DNA from: Escherichia phage PMBT57
Strand: one strand, 5' to 3'
DNA length: 64,000 bases
Sequence record: MG770228.1
Below, one piece after another: positions 28,307-41,536 of this stretch. The position numbers were made by a program, and so were the translations under genes. The notes beneath the pieces are model-generated. The model was not told where the DNA came from, did no database searches, and saw nothing but the letters and a program-made list of their open reading frames with translations. Position 1 is the stretch's first letter. Every line of letters starts with the position of its first letter.

Positions 28307-34880
<6,574 letters not shown>

Positions 34881-36515
34881 TCACACGATATATGAAGAGA
34901 GTGGGTTAACACTTCCAGTATCATCACCATCATCCCACAATGGGTCACCTGATGTATTAACTGGAACCATACCTGCTTGTGGTTTCCACGGGTTCAGGTA
35001 GCCAAGCATTGAAATGGTATCAATACAGTCATCCTTACCTTTAAGACCATTGATAGTGGCTAAACGAATTTGCCCCATAAAGAGTGTCATGATTGGGCTA
35101 TCTTTCATCTCAGCAGGAAAATACATCTTACCAGCTTTGAACCAGGGAACCACGAGGTTAAACCTTGATAGCTTACTGGTTACAGGATGAATACCCGGTT
35201 GGCCTCCACGACTGGATGCAAAGTTAAAGAACACATTACGGTTAAGCATTTCCTTCTGAAGAAGAGAAATAAAACCACCTTGCTGTCCGGTAGTTTCTAC
35301 ACCAACTTGTTGTGGTTGGTATTCCTGAACCAGACGGAATAAGTCATCAAAGTTCTTATCCATAGTTTGACGGCAAGCAATACCATCTACCCAGAACCAG
35401 TCACCGTTAGAACCATATGCCCATACTGATATTACAGAGTAATCAGATACCTGCTTCTCGCTGGTAGCAAAGTCAGTGGTGATATAGAAGTTATAACAAG
35501 AACGTAGACGTAATAGCTGCGTACGGGAATACCATTTAATCTCTGAATCTTGAATCAGACGTTCATCTTCAGAGCTGATACGTAACATCAATTCCTGATA
35601 AAAGGATGCCAGCTTACCTGTCTTCAATGCCATCTGGTATTGGTCATTGATGTAGTCATAGGAGAAACGGTCTTCCCAAGCACCTTGAAATTCTTCTCGC
35701 GTACATGGGAATTTCTCACATACAGGCCATACGTTGACATCCCAAGCACCAGATTCAACTGCTTCAATAAGAATGTCTTCCTTATTAAAGGGAGTACCAT
35801 TAAATATTACCTTGCGTCTTGTTGGGTCAAGAGCATGGTTCACGCCCTTATATACCGTGTCTTTAATGGCCTCCATTGATGTACGTGAGCGAGCATCATC
35901 ATCGCTAACTAAGTCATCCAGTACACAAAGAACGGGACGTTTACCAAAAATCTTAGTACCACGAAGACCTGTCTTAGCACCGAACATCTTCACACCAAGA
36001 CGGTGACCTTCAGCATTTACAAACTCAAGGTAGTTATCTGTGAAGGTAGCTTTAGGAATCCATTGTTGCAGGAATGGTGAATTGTTGTATCGAAACTCAA
36101 TGTTCTTACGGGCAGACTTAACACCGTTATCCATAGAGTCAGATACATAAATCATTCCTTCTACTTTACCCAAGCTAGGTAGATGCCCAAACACTGCTAA
36201 GAACAAAGTAAAGTATTCCATGAACAGAGTTGTCTTTGCTGCACCACGGAAACATAAGTTAGCAATGTACTGATTCCTACTGGTTATCTTATCCAGCATC
36301 TTTAAGTGAACAGGAGGGGTTTTGTTTGATTCCCCCTCCTTACCATTAACCAGCTTAATAAAGTTAGCAAAGGTCAGTGCAAACTCGGTTGGTATATACG
36401 TAGGGGTATTCAGAACGGAATAGTCCACTTGGTCTAGCCATTCATCCAACTCCTGTTTAATTAGTTCAGACATCAATAATATCCTCGTCTTCTCGAACCA
36501 GTGTGGAACCTGCAA
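34881..36515 (-). CDS. terminase large subunit
   Basis: 544 aa; Walker A-like RGAAKTT near N-terminus; position at end of structural block. Confidence 0.65.
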   Translation of the reverse strand: MQVPHWFEKTRILLMSELIKQELDEWLDQVDYSVLNTPTYIPTEFALTFANFIKLVNGKEGESNKTPPVHLKMLDKITSRNQYIANLCFRGAAKTTLFMEYFTLFLAVFGHLPSLGKVEGMIYVSDSMDNGVKSARKNIEFRYNNSPFLQQWIPKATFTDNYLEFVNAEGHRLGVKMFGAKTGLRGTKIFGKRPVLCVLDDLVSDDDARSRTSMEAIKDTVYKGVNHALDPTRRKVIFNGTPFNKEDILIEAVESGAWDVNVWPVCEKFPCTREEFQGAWEDRFSYDYINDQYQMALKTGKLASFYQELMLRISSEDERLIQDSEIKWYSRTQLLRLRSCYNFYITTDFATSEKQVSDYSVISVWAYGSNGDWFWVDGIACRQTMDKNFDDLFRLVQEYQPQQVGVETTGQQGGFISLLQKEMLNRNVFFNFASSRGGQPGIHPVTSKLSRFNLVVPWFKAGKMYFPAEMKDSPIMTLFMGQIRLATINGLKGKDDCIDTISMLGYLNPWKPQAGMVPVNTSGDPLWDDGDDTGSVNPLSSYIV

Positions 36516-37158
36516 TTACTTTAGTAGGTGTACCAGCTTCAATAGCTGCTTTCTGAGCTTCAGCCAACTGGGTTAGTGTGTTCTTGAGTTCAGTCAATCC
36601 AGAGTTTTCTCTCAAATCCAGATTGATATTAGTAACAGCATCCTTCGGTTTCTGGAGGTGAGTAAGGATAGAGTTGGCAGCATCACACTGTACCTTCTCA
36701 CTGGTAGCATTCTTCATGAGCCATGCCTGATGGTTCAATGCTTCCTGAAACAAATCCTGATTAACAATCCATACTGGAATCAGTGATTGTTCCATAATGA
36801 GGTTTACTAACTTACCTCTATGGTAAGCAGATACATAAGCAGAGATGTCCTTCTCACTGGTTCCCCTTGCTACTAATTCAGCTTGTCTGTTGGGGAATGT
36901 TTTGAAGTAAGCATCTTTGTTGCTATACCCCATGTGTTTGTAAGTAACATATTGAACAGCATTAAGATAATCCTGGGTCTTAAACTTCCCATCCTTCATC
37001 ACCCCAGCATAAGTCACAAAGTTATTTCTAATTTGCTCTGCTGCTGTCTGGTCTTGGGTCACATTGTTAATCATGTTTACCAGTTGGTCAGTAACACTGC
37101 TTTTAAACTGGGGAGGCAATGCAGAAACAATGTCTTTCTTCGTCAGTAGTGTGCTCAT
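36466..37158 (-). CDS. putative terminase small subunit / packaging protein
   Basis: First gene of the late operon, overlaps the terminase large-subunit start by 50 nt. Confidence 0.4.
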   Translation of the reverse strand: MSTLLTKKDIVSALPPQFKSSVTDQLVNMINNVTQDQTAAEQIRNNFVTYAGVMKDGKFKTQDYLNAVQYVTYKHMGYSNKDAYFKTFPNRQAELVARGTSEKDISAYVSAYHRGKLVNLIMEQSLIPVWIVNQDLFQEALNHQAWLMKNATSEKVQCDAANSILTHLQKPKDAVTNINLDLRENSGLTELKNTLTQLAEAQKAAIEAGTPTKVIAGSTLVREDEDIIDV

Positions 37159-37285
37159 AGTCTTCCTACAAATTATCTAGAGTGAAGAGGATTCTTTTCT
37201 TGGGGTTAGCACCCCTTGCAGAAACCTATACATAGATTTAGACTTTAGACTTTCTTTAGTCTCCTTACAATAGTAAGACAGAGAC

Positions 37286-37627
37286 ATGGGGAGCCTATTG
37301 CCCAAAGGAACCAGTAACATGAGACTATTCTATAGTTTTGACGGTAATGACCAATGGAATGAGATAGACTTCAGTAAAATAGGTGGAGCTATCCCAGTTG
37401 GAGGGGCTATACCAGGTGACCATATCTTATGTCACGATGAGGAGTCTTTCCATTACATCTCCGGTATGATGTTAATCAATAACGTCACTGGGTTTACTGT
37501 CCATAAACCTGCACCAGTACGTGTCATTACCAAGCCTATTGAGGGTCTTGCATTCTTTACAAGAATACCTCAAAGTATCTCTATCAAACGACAGCGTGAC
37601 GCCATCGAGATGACCGTGGTTGCTTGA
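37286..37627 (+). CDS. hypothetical ORF in the terminus region
   Basis: ORF track only; overlapped by two antisense ORFs; a plus-strand terminator follows. Confidence 0.25.
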   Translation: MGSLLPKGTSNMRLFYSFDGNDQWNEIDFSKIGGAIPVGGAIPGDHILCHDEESFHYISGMMLINNVTGFTVHKPAPVRVITKPIEGLAFFTRIPQSISIKRQRDAIEMTVVA

Positions 37628-37790
37628 TAAGCCATTGCCCGCCCAGGAGTTGGTGGCGGGAAACAGGGAACTGTTTGAATAACCACTCCAGCTACATTCA
37701 CCCATCTCCAAGACACCTTTGTTATCTGCCATTGGGTGATGAGTAGTATCAGAGAGAACTGATTTAACAAACACACTCGGTATAGGAATT

Positions 37791-37818
37791 GGGAGCCATT
37801 TGGCTCCCTTTTTCTTTT
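37791..37818 (+). terminator. intrinsic terminator-like hairpin
   Basis: 7-bp stem gggagcc/ggctccc, loop attt, then TTTTTCTTTT. Confidence 0.55.
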
Positions 37819-37837
37819 ATGAACCAAGGAGTTCTAT

Positions 37838-38203
37838 ATGAACATTCGTCCTAATGAAGTTTATGGTATCAACCTAGAATACACTACAAACAAACCTGCT
37901 CTATTTCACTGCGGTTCCACCAATCTATTCCATGCTATGTGTGGTAATACCAAACCTCTTTACTTACCCGAATCGGATGATACCCATGCCCTACTAGGTA
38001 ACTGGTTCTTAGAAGGTAAAGACATTAGTACCATTCTTCTCGAACCAAGGAAGAAAGTAGCAATACCTACTAATGCATGGAATAACGAAGTCATTTACTT
38101 CCTAGCACCAGAAGGCTTTGAACCAGTGATAGAACAGAATCACTTTAATCATGCAGTTACTTTCTACTTCAGAGAGACTTCAAAGTTATCTGCTTATAAA
38201 TAA
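37838..38203 (+). CDS. early hypothetical protein, 121 aa
   Basis: ORF track; RBS aaggag 7 nt upstream of ATG. Confidence 0.6.
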   Translation: MNIRPNEVYGINLEYTTNKPALFHCGSTNLFHAMCGNTKPLYLPESDDTHALLGNWFLEGKDISTILLEPRKKVAIPTNAWNNEVIYFLAPEGFEPVIEQNHFNHAVTFYFRETSKLSAYK

Positions 38204-38212
38204 GGAAAGCTA

Positions 38213-38340
38213 TGTGGTATATAACAGTTAAAGGTTTATCCGAACCAGTGATGATAGATAGCCTGGCATTCGTAGAAGTAGGTCATCCTATTCTTATAGA
38301 AGGTAAGTTGTATGAAGTTGTTAGTATTTATAAGAGATAA
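38213..38340 (+). CDS. small early ORF, 42 aa
   Basis: ATG with RBS aaggaa immediately after previous stop; below ORF-track size cutoff. Confidence 0.3.
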
Positions 38341-38506
38341 ATAGGAAGTCTATTAGATAGATACCTTATAATTTTTTCTTAGTGAAAATAGTCATAGTTA
38401 CTTATGAGTTCAGTATTTGGTGGGGCTACACCCCTTACACCATAAGCACCCCCCCCCTGTCTTTACTAGTGTAGCCTTAGCCTACCCCACCTTGTACACG
38501 TTACAC

Positions 38507-38519
38507 GTTGCTTCGCAAC
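38507..38519 (+). promoter_or_regulatory. 5-bp stem / 3-nt loop hairpin, candidate vRNAP-type promoter
   Basis: gttgc-ttc-gcaac; template strand gives loop GAA with central purine; about 50 nt upstream of ATG 38571. Confidence 0.35.
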
Positions 38520-38570
38520 TTATGGACATGTTGTCCGTATCTTATCAATCAACTATTGGAGACTAATACT

Positions 38571-38897
38571 ATGACTACTCAGGCTAACGTTCGTATGACT
38601 GTAGGAACTCTGTTGGGTACTGTTAACGAAGCAGCAACTACTGTAGCTGATACATTCGGTACTGCTACTAAAGCAGTAGGTATGCTTAATCGTTATGTAA
38701 CTAAACAAGCAGATAAACAAATCATTCGTGACAAATTAGAAATGCATGAGTTTACCAATAAACTTATTGAAGAAACTGCAATGCAAGAAGCTATTCGTCA
38801 GAAACAAATCTTAGACTTCTGCAAAGATGAACAAAACAAAGAATTGTTCTCTAATGCCTATGACCGTCTTAGCAAAATCTTAGCAGACTCTAAATAA
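38571..38897 (+). CDS. early hypothetical protein, 108 aa
   Basis: ATG with RBS ggagac; ORF track frame opens at 38508. Confidence 0.55.
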   Translation: MTTQANVRMTVGTLLGTVNEAATTVADTFGTATKAVGMLNRYVTKQADKQIIRDKLEMHEFTNKLIEETAMQEAIRQKQILDFCKDEQNKELFSNAYDRLSKILADSK

Positions 38898-38909
38898 CAA
38901 CAAACAAAT

Positions 38910-38933
38910 GGAGGCTCCTCGGAGTCTCCTTTT
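38910..38933 (+). terminator. intrinsic terminator
   Basis: Stem ggaggct/agtctcc (one G-U) followed by TTTTAC. Confidence 0.5.
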
Positions 38934-38973
38934 ACATAGAACCGATAGTTCAATAACTATCTACTTTAAAGAT

Positions 38974-38990
38974 AAGAAGCTCCGCTTCTT
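38974..38990 (+). promoter_or_regulatory. 7-bp stem / 3-nt loop hairpin, N4 vRNAP early-promoter-like
   Basis: aagaagc-tcc-gcttctt; template strand reads AAGAAGC-GGA-GCTTCTT, matching the N4 P2 promoter hairpin as I recall it. Confidence 0.5.
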
Positions 38991-39100
38991 TTGGATGAAG
39001 TAATGCATCCAATCCTGTATGAAATCTTAACCTTTTGTCTGGGATTACTTACCGACAAAGTAGTCTCAACTAATCAAAATCAACTATCTGGAGAGTACAA

Positions 39101-39488
39101 AATGGCTATCACTACTTTTGCTAAAACCTTTGGTCAGACTTCTACTAAAACTGAATCCAACAATGGTTCTCGCCCGAAAGCTCAGTTCTGGATTAACGTT
39201 GGCTACGTAGCTAATGAAGGCACTGAAGATGAACGTTTCATCTCTCTGCCTACTGGTATTCCACTGGATACTCAGGAGCATCTGCCAACCAATTCCTCTA
39301 ACGAAGACTTCCGTGCAATGCGTTGTGCACAGAACGATTTGTTAGACCAACTGATGGAATTTGCTAAGACTCTGGAACCGGGTCAAGAAGGAGTTATCTC
39401 CTTGCAAGTTCAACTTCGTCGAGTTAAAGAAGAAGCTCCTGCTATCTCAGCAAGTGAGAATAAATATGCTCGTAAACTGACTTTCTAA
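39101..39488 (+). CDS. early hypothetical protein, 129 aa
   Basis: ATG with RBS ggagag; ORF track frame opens at 38991. Confidence 0.55.
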
Positions 39489-39496
39489 TCTCTATA

Positions 39497-39521
39497 GGAC
39501 TACCTTCGGGTAGTCCTTTTT
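39497..39521 (+). terminator. intrinsic terminator
   Basis: 8-bp stem ggactacc/ggtagtcc, ttcg tetraloop, TTTTT. Confidence 0.7.
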
Positions 39522-39588
39522 AATTTTAACTATCTAAATACTAAAGTAGAGATTTTGACCCTTTTCGACGAAGGGATACTAAAAAGTA

Positions 39589-39945
39589 ATGGATAGTTTG
39601 AGCAGATGTTTTAGAAGAAGGAGTATACAGATGCATCCTCTTATAAAACGATTCCTGATGGACTATCAGGAGTGGTTAGATAATGGAGCCAGTGAACCTC
39701 ATTACCTGTTTGATAGGGGTAGTGGACTGTGTGTTCAACTAGGCAAGTATCTTAGAAGACAGCCAATCAGTGAAGAAACAGTAGATGCTCTGTGTAAGAG
39801 CTTTACTCATTTACTTCCTGATAATGATACCAATCTACCATTCAATGTAGATGTTCTCGACTACATGATGGAATGTTCTGATGGAAGATGTCATCTGAAC
39901 CAAAGTCGAATTAATTGGATTAAGAGTCAGTTGGAGAGTAAGTAA
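39589..39945 (+). CDS. early hypothetical protein; likely true start at ATG 39631
   Basis: ORF track; RBS aaggag before the internal ATG. Confidence 0.55.
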   Translation: MDSLSRCFRRRSIQMHPLIKRFLMDYQEWLDNGASEPHYLFDRGSGLCVQLGKYLRRQPISEETVDALCKSFTHLLPDNDTNLPFNVDVLDYMMECSDGRCHLNQSRINWIKSQLESK

Positions 39946-39948
39946 ATT

Positions 39949-40386
39949 ATGTCATATGAAATTGTAAAACATTGGACTTCTAAGGCTGGGCTGAAAGCTT
40001 GGGTATTGCTGGTAAATGGTGGTAGTCATCATTGTGGTTACGTAGAAATACCTGAAGCATTACTGGATAAAAACTTCTATGACTATATCTGTGATGATGA
40101 AGAAACACTTCATATTGCAGTACATGGTGGAGTTACCTATCAAGGTGTTCCTCAGTGGGCTGATGGGATTAAAGTCATAGGTTATGACTGTGCTCATGCA
40201 GGGGATAAACTGAAATGTCCTAAACAATTCATTGGCTCTCTTAGGGAGAGACTCTATGAGGATTCTTATGGAGTATGGCGAGATGAAGAATACTGCATCA
40301 ATGAATGTGAAAGCATGGCAGACCAGTTAATTAACCTGATACCAAAATTAGGGTTTAACGATGAAATTCAGAACAGTAATGGTTAA
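39949..40386 (+). CDS. early hypothetical protein, 145 aa
   Basis: ORF track. Confidence 0.55.
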   Translation: MSYEIVKHWTSKAGLKAWVLLVNGGSHHCGYVEIPEALLDKNFYDYICDDEETLHIAVHGGVTYQGVPQWADGIKVIGYDCAHAGDKLKCPKQFIGSLRERLYEDSYGVWRDEEYCINECESMADQLINLIPKLGFNDEIQNSNG

Positions 40387-40558
40387 TGCTCTTGATACCA
40401 GGGGTAATGAAATCATTAGCTATAAAGTGCAAGGCTTTAAATGGTTCAAATGGAAAACATTAACTAGCTTTAAAGAATTTGAGAAAGATAAAGCTATTAA
40501 GTTAACCAAGAAGTTGAACCAACGTAAGAAGATTAAATTAGTTACTGTAATTAAATAA
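40361..40558 (+). CDS. small basic hypothetical protein, 65 aa
   Basis: ORF track; overlaps upstream gene by 26 nt. Confidence 0.4.
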   Translation: MKFRTVMVNALDTRGNEIISYKVQGFKWFKWKTLTSFKEFEKDKAIKLTKKLNQRKKIKLVTVIK

Positions 40559-40568
40559 GGATAAGGCA

Positions 40569-40727
40569 ATGCGTAAATCACTAATCATGGGAACCAAAGA
40601 AGACGTTGCTAAGATGAAAGCTAAACGTCAGATGAATAAAGCAGTAACGTTTGCAGAACGTTATAGTACGTCTGAACCAGTACGTCGTATTGTTACTTTC
40701 AACCATCCAGCTATTAAGGGTATGTAA
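40569..40727 (+). CDS. small ORF, 52 aa
   Basis: ATG 10 nt after previous stop; stop overlaps next start; below ORF-track cutoff. Confidence 0.35.
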   Translation: MRKSLIMGTKEDVAKMKAKRQMNKAVTFAERYSTSEPVRRIVTFNHPAIKGM

Positions 40728-40936
40728 TGCAAACTAAAGATAAGAAAGACTTAGAACGTCTTCTCCGTGTATATGGTGATTATGCATTGTTAGCAGAGAT
40801 AACTAATATTATCGAAGAAGACTGTCGTAACGGTTATGCCAATAACCCACAAGCAATAATTCATCGTGATGCAGTAGTGCTTAGAGAAGCAGTCAGTAAG
40901 ATGCAAGTATTACATCCATTAAGACAACGAGCATAA
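40727..40936 (+). CDS. hypothetical protein, 69 aa
   Basis: ORF track. Confidence 0.5.
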   Translation: MQTKDKKDLERLLRVYGDYALLAEITNIIEEDCRNGYANNPQAIIHRDAVVLREAVSKMQVLHPLRQRA

Positions 40937-41009
40937 ATAGGAGGGGGCTACTAAGCCCTCTTCTTATTTTTATCGTGGTTATTAAGCAACTATCTTAGAG
41001 GAAGGAATA

Positions 41010-41225
41010 ATGGAACAGTTAAACTACGGTTATAAGATTAAACGCAATCAAGTAAGAGGTTCTTGGTTATTTCTCGTTTATGGTAAACCAATCTATGAAT
41101 TACATCGTGGAGAGAAATCCAAGACCTATTACGTAACTCATATTGCTACAGGAAAAACTCCTGCATGTGCAGGATTGCTTCGTGATGCAATTATGAAAGC
41201 ATGTATGTTAGAAGGACTTCTATGA
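41010..41225 (+). CDS. hypothetical protein, 71 aa
   Basis: ORF track; RBS ggaagg. Confidence 0.5.
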   Translation: MEQLNYGYKIKRNQVRGSWLFLVYGKPIYELHRGEKSKTYYVTHIATGKTPACAGLLRDAIMKACMLEGLL

Positions 41226-41536
41226 ACCAAATCATTGCTATCCCGCAGCATAAAGCTCGTATTGCTGACAGGAATATTCGTATTCATTATCCAATGCCTT
41301 TGAGTAATCCATTTCAGAAAAATGAGAGAACCACGGATGAAGATATAGCAGCAGCTTATGAGGCATATCTTCGTAACCGTTTGGTAAGTGGTGACAAGCT
41401 CATTACGGCTGAAATGGAACGAATTGCTAAATTCGTTATGGATACTACTGACAAACCAGTTGGCCTCATCGGTAATGAACTGGAAGTGAATGTAATCCGT
41501 AAGATTATTATGGAGGCTCTTAATGGGAATCAGTGA
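41222..41536 (+). CDS. hypothetical protein with partial DUF4326-like N-terminal motif
   Basis: LSNPF and AAYEAYLRNRL motifs resemble the N-terminal half of DUF4326; lacks the Cys/His cluster. Confidence 0.45.
   Translation: MNQIIAIPQHKARIADRNIRIHYPMPLSNPFQKNERTTDEDIAAAYEAYLRNRLVSGDKLITAEMERIAKFVMDTTDKPVGLIGNELEVNVIRKIIMEALNGNQ

Follow-up and report, generated by a model that had tools for sequence, protein, structure and literature searches.

The stretch of DNA that was analysed (the window) comprises 64,000 nucleotides of Escherichia phage PMBT57 (MG770228.1). This study concerns positions 37159–37837, at a strand switch, and their surroundings; the features of the region are listed in Table 1. 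With coliphage N4 and closely related phages, a 2.5-kb query around this interval shared 98.5–99.2% identity. In the N4 record (EF056009), the final 4,154 bases (positions 66000–70153) aligned without gaps to window positions 34264–38417; the first 4,000 bases aligned to 38418–42417. N4 position 70153 thus corresponds to window position 38417 and N4 position 1 to 38418, with no overlap between them. These alignments on both sides of 38417/38418 bear out the view of the initial annotation that the window represents a rotated genome. Because the N4 record shows no similarity between its two ends and a self-BLAST of the window revealed no long internal repeat, the terminal repeat is present only once. 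The window is a rotated N4-type assembly, in which the right end is joined to the left end and the terminal repeat occurs in single copy. The DNA of the gp69–gp70 intergenic region, of gp70–gp72 and of the left end with the early promoters P1 and P2 was 98–100% identical to N4, and the 182 nt at 37159–37340 were 100% identical. Gene order and coordinates of N4 therefore carry over directly to the window. The N4 record contains no annotation within the gp69–gp70 intergenic region.

Table 1. Positions, strands and supporting evidence of the features at and around the strand switch. Positions refer to the window; sequences in the first column are short motifs.
Feature	Position	Strand	Basis
gp69, heading the leftward late operon in this phage	36466–37158	−	N4 gp69; phrog_2109, E = 5.5e-102
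Predicted 5′ leader of gp69 mRNA	37159–37235	−	Predicted transcript start
Rightward −35 candidate TTGCAG	37216–37221	+	TTG offset count
11-mer TTAGACTTTAG with two overlapping candidate −10 boxes	37238–37248		Alignment of annotated phages
Plus-strand −10 candidate TAGACT	37239–37244	+	Comparison of lineages
Minus-strand −10 candidate TAAAGT	37247 to 37242	−	Comparison of lineages
Leader hairpin GTCTCCTTAC / AATA / GTAAG(aca)GAGAC	37259–37285	+	Covariation
Leftward late −35 candidate TTGTAA	37265–37270	−	TTG/CAA offset count
CCTATTG(Y)C box	37294–37302	+	Alignment
gp70, 102 aa, start MRLFY	37319–37627	+	N4 annotation; phrog_7213, E = 4.6e-38
gp70 3′ untranslated region, 163 nt	37628–37790	+	Hairpin; block conserved in KP8
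Intrinsic terminator closing the gp70 unit	37791–37818	+	Terminator scan; relatives
gp71	37838–38203	+	N4 annotation; gp71/gp72 match phrog_9160 and phrog_19797
gp72	38212–38340	+	N4 annotation; gp71/gp72 match phrog_9160 and phrog_19797
Predicted direct terminal repeat, one collapsed copy	~38416–38828		N4 junction; KP8 and IME11 boundaries; motifs
P1, virion RNA polymerase early promoter hairpin GTTGC-TTC-GCAAC	38507–38519	+	Sequence; KP8 annotation
gp1	38571–38897	+	N4 annotation transfer
P2, early promoter hairpin	38974–38990		Sequence; KP8 annotation

The strand switch lies at the start of the leftward late operon, as described previously: gp69 starts at 37158 on the minus strand, and the next genes are all rightward. 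Homologues of gp69 have amino-acid identities of 49–86% and are annotated as small terminase subunit in the phages KP8 and Philippe. The predicted gp69 leader contains a hairpin (GGGGT-TAGC-ACCCC) and a ribosome-binding AGGAAG, and is conserved at ~80% identity in Gamaleyavirus and KP8-like phages. The tandem TAGACTT reported earlier was recovered at 37239–37245 and 37246–37252, and hairpins, likewise described before, were located at 37202–37215, 37259–37285 and 37638–37660. Taken singly, the hairpins of the interval did not fold more stably than expected by chance, with z-scores of −1.0 for the gp70 leader and only −1.2 for the gp69 leader, and the gp70 3′ region including the terminator reached −2.6. 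It is the comparison with relatives that argues for these hairpins.

Several lines of evidence show that the open reading frame at 37286–37627, which had been suspected not to be a real gene, corresponds to the conserved gene gp70 with a shared start. Homologues in KP8, St11Ph5, Axy13, JWAlpha, phiAxp-3 and Axy10, representing five genera, were 27–37% identical, and all six start at the methionine of MRLFY (window position 37319). Public data contain further homologues, and overall homologues occur in six or more genera. The ATG at 37286 was considered as the start of gp70 or of a small upstream open reading frame, and was rejected because the homologues start at MRLFY and neither this ATG nor its frame is conserved. 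The AlphaFold2 model of gp70 (mean pLDDT 85.5) had no fold match in the PDB (E above 0.6). In BFVD it matched only uncharacterised small proteins, and the significant matches (E ≤ 0.001) were all proteins of N4-like phages. Several of the matched proteins are uncharacterised, ~100 aa long and from N4-like phages, some of them from the same genomes. KP8 contributed at least four different proteins, and a weak match was to an OLB145 protein as long as gp71 (121 aa). The model comparisons suggest that the gp70-like small proteins may form a paralogous family.

Downstream of gp70, the 3′ untranslated region contains the conserved hairpin CCCGCC...GGCGGG with the loop CAGGAG, and a block at 37738–37817 that is ~80% identical in KP8. 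A gap of similar or larger size follows the gp70 homologue in every genus examined; between annotated genes it measures roughly 200–290 nt in most relatives and 521 nt in Axy13. It could be a 3′-UTR RNA element or a small unannotated gene. The plus-strand terminator of the initial annotation was found in place, with a stem-loop at 37791–37808 and a T-run extending to 37818. A terminator scan of 36900–39700 yielded six terminator-like sites, against 1.8 expected. It has the features of a Rho-independent terminator, and KP8 and St11Ph5 form the same structure from different sequences; in JWAlpha the annotation puts a terminator at this position, and AL25 has one annotated too. Judging from these relatives, the terminator closes the gp70 unit and marks no genome boundary. 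Because only 20 nt separate the terminator from gp71, we infer that gp71 and gp72 are expressed by read-through. The gene at 37838 had been taken for the first early gene. It is gp71, which is located at the right end of the N4 record; in the virion DNA, gp70–gp72 come last, at the right end, and gp71 and gp72 are not early by position.

The 11-mer TTAGACTTTAG, which includes the first TAGACTT copy, was invariant in the eight annotated phages that were aligned, except for one base in St11Ph5. The plus-strand −10 candidate varies across lineages as TACACT, TAGAGT, TATAGT, TAGAAT and TAGTAT, and the minus-strand candidate as TAAACT, TATAGT and TAAATT. These variants keep TAnnnT (A at position 2, T at position 6) on both strands; the exceptions, on the minus strand, come from some of the most distant lineages. 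Of 20 non-redundant lineages, 8 had a TTG at exactly 17 bp upstream of TAGACT and 12 lacked it; other offsets occurred mostly 0–2 times, with a maximum of 4. On the minus strand, TTG (CAA on the plus strand) was found at a 17-bp spacer in 12 of the 20 lineages and one base further in two more, against a background of 0–1. The spacers between the −35 and −10 boxes are unrelated in sequence across lineages. A −35 box at 16–18 bp, as in sigma-70 promoters, is thus present, though not universally. Since each of the overlapping −10 boxes has a TTG box 17 bp away, a polymerase could start either leftward or rightward. The match of the hexamers to the consensus is weak: the plus-strand promoter agrees with it at 7 of 12 positions, the minus-strand promoter at 8 of 12. 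A promoter scan with a threshold of 9 of 12 reported instead TTTAGA-16-TACAAT at 37244–37271, which is not conserved in other genera.

The late promoters of N4 were reportedly mapped in 1995, by Cho. According to two papers, late transcription of N4 proceeds leftward from the right half of the genome and is carried out by the sigma-70 polymerase at weak promoters (PMC4496689; PMC9163698). The candidate promoter described here shares with the N4 late promoters the leftward polarity, the location in the right half, the weak match to the consensus and the position at the head of the morphogenesis genes. It also resembles the bidirectional sigma-70 promoters of bacteria (Warman et al. 2021, as described in PMC10268837). 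In both, −10-like hexamers oppose each other on the two strands of a short pseudo-symmetric segment, and each arm drives an mRNA, which is a prediction in the phage. The predicted starts here are 16 bp apart, which is within the 7–25 bp given there for divergent bacterial starts. In contrast to the bacterial promoters as described there, the distance is not the commonest one of 18 bp, positions −7 and −11 are not reciprocally coincident, and both arms also have −35 TTG boxes. The comparison across lineages indicates that 37216–37270 is most likely a compact bidirectional sigma-70-type promoter. The host sigma-70 RNA polymerase would start leftward at ~37235 to transcribe gp69, the terminase gene and the virion genes, and would start rightward at ~37251 to transcribe gp70; both starts are predicted.

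Rightward of the 11-mer, the leader hairpin and the CCTATTG box form the second part of the conserved sequence. In seven alignable lineages, RNAalifold predicted a hairpin of 10 pairs, four of which had compensatory changes. Of the cells in this alignment, 95.7% were paired, and the observed covariation was reached by none of 500 shuffles. In distant lineages the hairpin is rebuilt with the same purine-rich right arm and a different left arm. A contiguous-stem test over 21 lineages gave a combined p of 0.0026, in a crude and weak test that misses bulged stems. Several G-U pairs, workable only in plus-strand RNA, favour the view that the hairpin acts as plus-strand RNA. The CCTATTG box lies 6–9 nt (mostly 7–8 nt) 3′ of the hairpin and upstream of the ribosome-binding site of gp70; among the 31 distinct loci that were aligned, almost all retain it with no more than one mismatch. 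Some phages have a second hairpin after the box, before the ribosome-binding site and gp70. We rejected CCTATTG as the −10 or −35 box of a further rightward promoter, as there was no consistent partner hexamer. The rightward transcript would thus carry the stem-loop 37259–37285, followed by a single-stranded CCUAUUG, the ribosome-binding site, gp70 and the terminator at 37791–37818. The leader sequence GGGGAGCC (37286–37300) is complementary to the 3′ half of the terminator stem, GGCTCCC (37797–37815). This may reflect 5′–3′ pairing within the gp70 mRNA; it spans only 7 nt, and is perhaps due to chance.

The 75-nt core at 37238–37312 is shared widely. Its identity reached 92% in inbricus (a Pseudomonas phage) and Axy13 (an Achromobacter phage), ~85–86% in KP8-like phages, JWAlpha and phiAxp-3, and 78–86% in JWAlpha, Axy12 and Axy10 (~78% in Axy10). 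Across four genera outside Enquatrovirinae, it was 78–92%. The adjoining terminase and gp69 genes were only 68–70% identical to those of the Achromobacter and Pseudomonas phages, and the remaining intergenic DNA did not align. A profile search found the module in 36 of 80 IMG/VR loci that contain gp69. Its orientation is constant, and its place is immediately upstream of whichever leftward gene comes first, also in loci with additional genes ahead of gp69. It occurs in phages of Escherichia, Klebsiella, Pseudomonas and Achromobacter; its conservation is weaker in Stenotrophomonas phage Philippe and in uncultured N4-like contigs. An exact-pattern scan of IMG/VR for both boxes gave 47 matches, of which only ~9 were true N4-like loci; the others were chance matches, in line with the expected number. 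Both TTAGACTTTAG and the CCTATTG box are single-copy in the window, no commoner than chance predicts, and for this reason we rejected them as a repeated promoter consensus or as iterons. The module was not annotated in the records inspected, in Rfam families or in the literature searched. We regard a single-copy, non-coding module of ~65–90 nt at the head of the late operon, conserved above the terminase genes, as a modestly new observation from sequence comparison.

The ends of the N4 genome are said to have been known since 1988, from work by Ohmori. The initial annotation had considered, by analogy with N4, that the physical ends and terminal repeats probably lie within 37159–37837, and had proposed an alignment to the N4 genome ends as a check. 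The ends of N4, KP8 and IME11 aligned at 38416–38418 and ~38828, which is outside the interval and which the initial annotation itself had named as a result that speaks against its proposal. Neither homology to mapped or annotated relatives nor self-BLAST revealed a terminal repeat or physical end inside 37159–37837. What stands of the earlier proposal is that, relative to the size of the genome, the ends are close by; the terminal repeat is located 0.6–1.0 kb to the right of the interval. The KP8 record has an identical 404-bp repeat at both ends, which starts with ATTGGTGGGGCTACACC and ends with TTCTGCAAAGAT, and the first and last bases of which align to window positions 38416 and 38828. 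Likewise, the boundary motifs GGGGCTACACC and TTCTGCAAAGAT align at the edges of the repeat in the window (38416–38432 and 38817–38828). In IME11, read-start peaks identified the termini GTGGCTGGGGCTACACCCGG and AATCTTTGCAGAAATCTTCG, 401 bp apart (PMC3896407), and the same two motifs were found at the repeat boundaries in the window. The same paper gives short direct terminal repeats of 390–440 bp for N4-like phages, with one end unique and the other variable, and for four Gamaleyaviruses PhageTerm indicated repeats of 401 bp (PMC11927229). In the records of Axy13, phiAxp-3, Axy10 and Axy22, the right-hand repeat is annotated 1.3–2.5 kb to the right of the strand switch. Nucleotide similarity to KP8 restarts at 38417, and the alignment block of contig L064 stops at 38831.

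Because the N4 junction, KP8, IME11, the Gamaleyaviruses, the Achromobacter records and the similarity limits of KP8 and L064 agree, we assign the terminal repeat to ~38416–38828. By homology, the physical left end maps to 38416–38418. The right boundary would be at about 38828, within a range of 38807–38857 based on the published 390–440 bp of N4, which gives a predicted repeat of roughly 411 bp. The homologous boundary motifs of the direct terminal repeats of N4 (390–440 bp), IME11 (401 bp) and KP8 (404 bp) are present at 38416–38422 and 38817–38828. The window has one copy, outside the interval, since the assembly collapsed the repeat. At the left boundary, the window and four other loci have (G)GCTACACC or GTACAC followed by a C-run; the right boundary is at or shortly after TTCTGCAA(A/G)GA, within the coding sequence of gp1. 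Conserved across genera, the boundary motifs are probably recognition or cleavage signals of the terminase. The ends of the Achromobacter and Pseudomonas phages have related but different motifs. In the Enquatrovirinae that were checked (N4, KP8 and IME11), GGGGCTACACC and TTCTGCAA(A/G)GA(T) can serve annotators as a genome-end landmark. That the strand switch is not the genome end likewise gives them a dependable landmark.

The early region is found to the right of this terminus. Both P1 and P2 are directly followed by TT(A/T)TGGA, and the KP8 record has early promoters annotated at the matching places, the one homologous to P1 at 89–110. Going by these positions, the true first early gene is gp1, and the early region begins at P1. 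P1 is located within the terminal repeat, so that the virion DNA must have a second, outward-facing copy at its right end. No early-promoter hairpin of the virion RNA polymerase (a 5–7 bp stem with a 3-nt loop and the conserved downstream sequence) was found in 37159–37837.

That the physical ends and terminal repeats nevertheless lie inside 37159–37837 is, in our judgement, highly improbable. Such a position would fit a strand switch with little coding sequence and the cumulative GC-skew minimum close by, at 38–39 kb, and at least one public record, that of AlfredRasser (GenBank MZ501049), is cut exactly at window position 37159, the base after the gp69 start codon. The cut at the strand switch in AlfredRasser was the annotator's choice, and hence record boundaries in the N4-type group are no evidence of physical ends. 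Moreover, the N4 record ends at 38417 and begins at 38418, the termini of KP8 and IME11 map to 38416 and 38828, the four Achromobacter phages have their repeats annotated 1.3–2.5 kb to the right of the switch, and the interval contains a conserved gene with its own terminator. We consider it probable that 37159–37837 combines a divergent control region, heading the N4 late operon, with one self-contained gene unit, and is not a terminus. This late-region interval most likely holds a bidirectional promoter, a structured leader and gp70 with its own terminator.

A promoter alone would not need the CCTATTG box or so strong a conservation, and this counts against a promoter-only reading. The most economical reading of the hairpin and the box, admittedly speculative, is a leader that stabilises or regulates the gp70 mRNA. 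It is also conceivable, as a tentative proposal, that hairpin, CCUAUUG box and promoter core form a Schitoviridae-wide cis-regulatory module, either as an RNA leader or as a DNA site bound by a phage factor, which could balance leftward packaging and structural transcription against rightward gp70 expression, or link packaging to late transcription that proceeds toward the concatemer junction. We think it unlikely that 37238–37302 serves primarily as a DNA site for packaging (of the pac type, with gp69 as small terminase) or as a replication origin rather than as a promoter. Such a site would explain why the element is single-copy in the genome, adjoins the terminase genes, is far more conserved than the flanking DNA and has three TTTAG(A/T)C repeats in N4; the in vivo replication origin of N4 is not covered in the literature searched. 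The cut sites, however, are 1.1–1.6 kb away with conserved motifs of their own, in other genera the 7-mers do not persist as repeats, the conservation fits hexamers at a 17-bp spacing with free spacers, and the G-U pairs of the hairpin point to RNA. A role of the hairpin and the CCTATTG box as a gp70 promoter recognised by one of the phage RNA polymerases, either that of the virion or RNAPII, and resembling the hairpin promoters of N4 early and LUZ7 middle genes, is improbable too. The fixed distance of 7–8 nt between the hairpin and the conserved box and the covariation of the stems agree with such a role, and in LUZ7 the middle promoters consist of hairpins that precede the start site by ~15 bp (PMC9163698). 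The early hairpins of N4, however, have 3-nt loops followed by TT(A/T)TGGA, whereas the loops here are 4–10 nt and lack this tail. According to PMC4496689, the minimal promoter of N4 RNAPII is AT-rich and extends from −7 to +2, with starts in the left half of the genome; moreover, the box occurs only once in the genome. If the preferred reading of a bidirectional late promoter with a regulatory leader is correct, it offers a testable handle on how N4-like phages start late transcription, and also on the expression of the uncharacterised genes gp70–gp72.

A search of 36000–40000 with the covariance models of Rfam 15 gave no match besides a sub-threshold one to L20_leader at 39421–39531 (25.5 bits against a gathering threshold of 58.7; E = 0.061), which overlaps the end of gp2 and a terminator at 39496–39517 and is probably due to chance. 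ARAGORN found no tRNA genes near the interval, and a tRNA cluster (Asn-GTT, Ser-TGA, Thr-TGT and Pro-TGG) lies on the plus strand at 716–1394.
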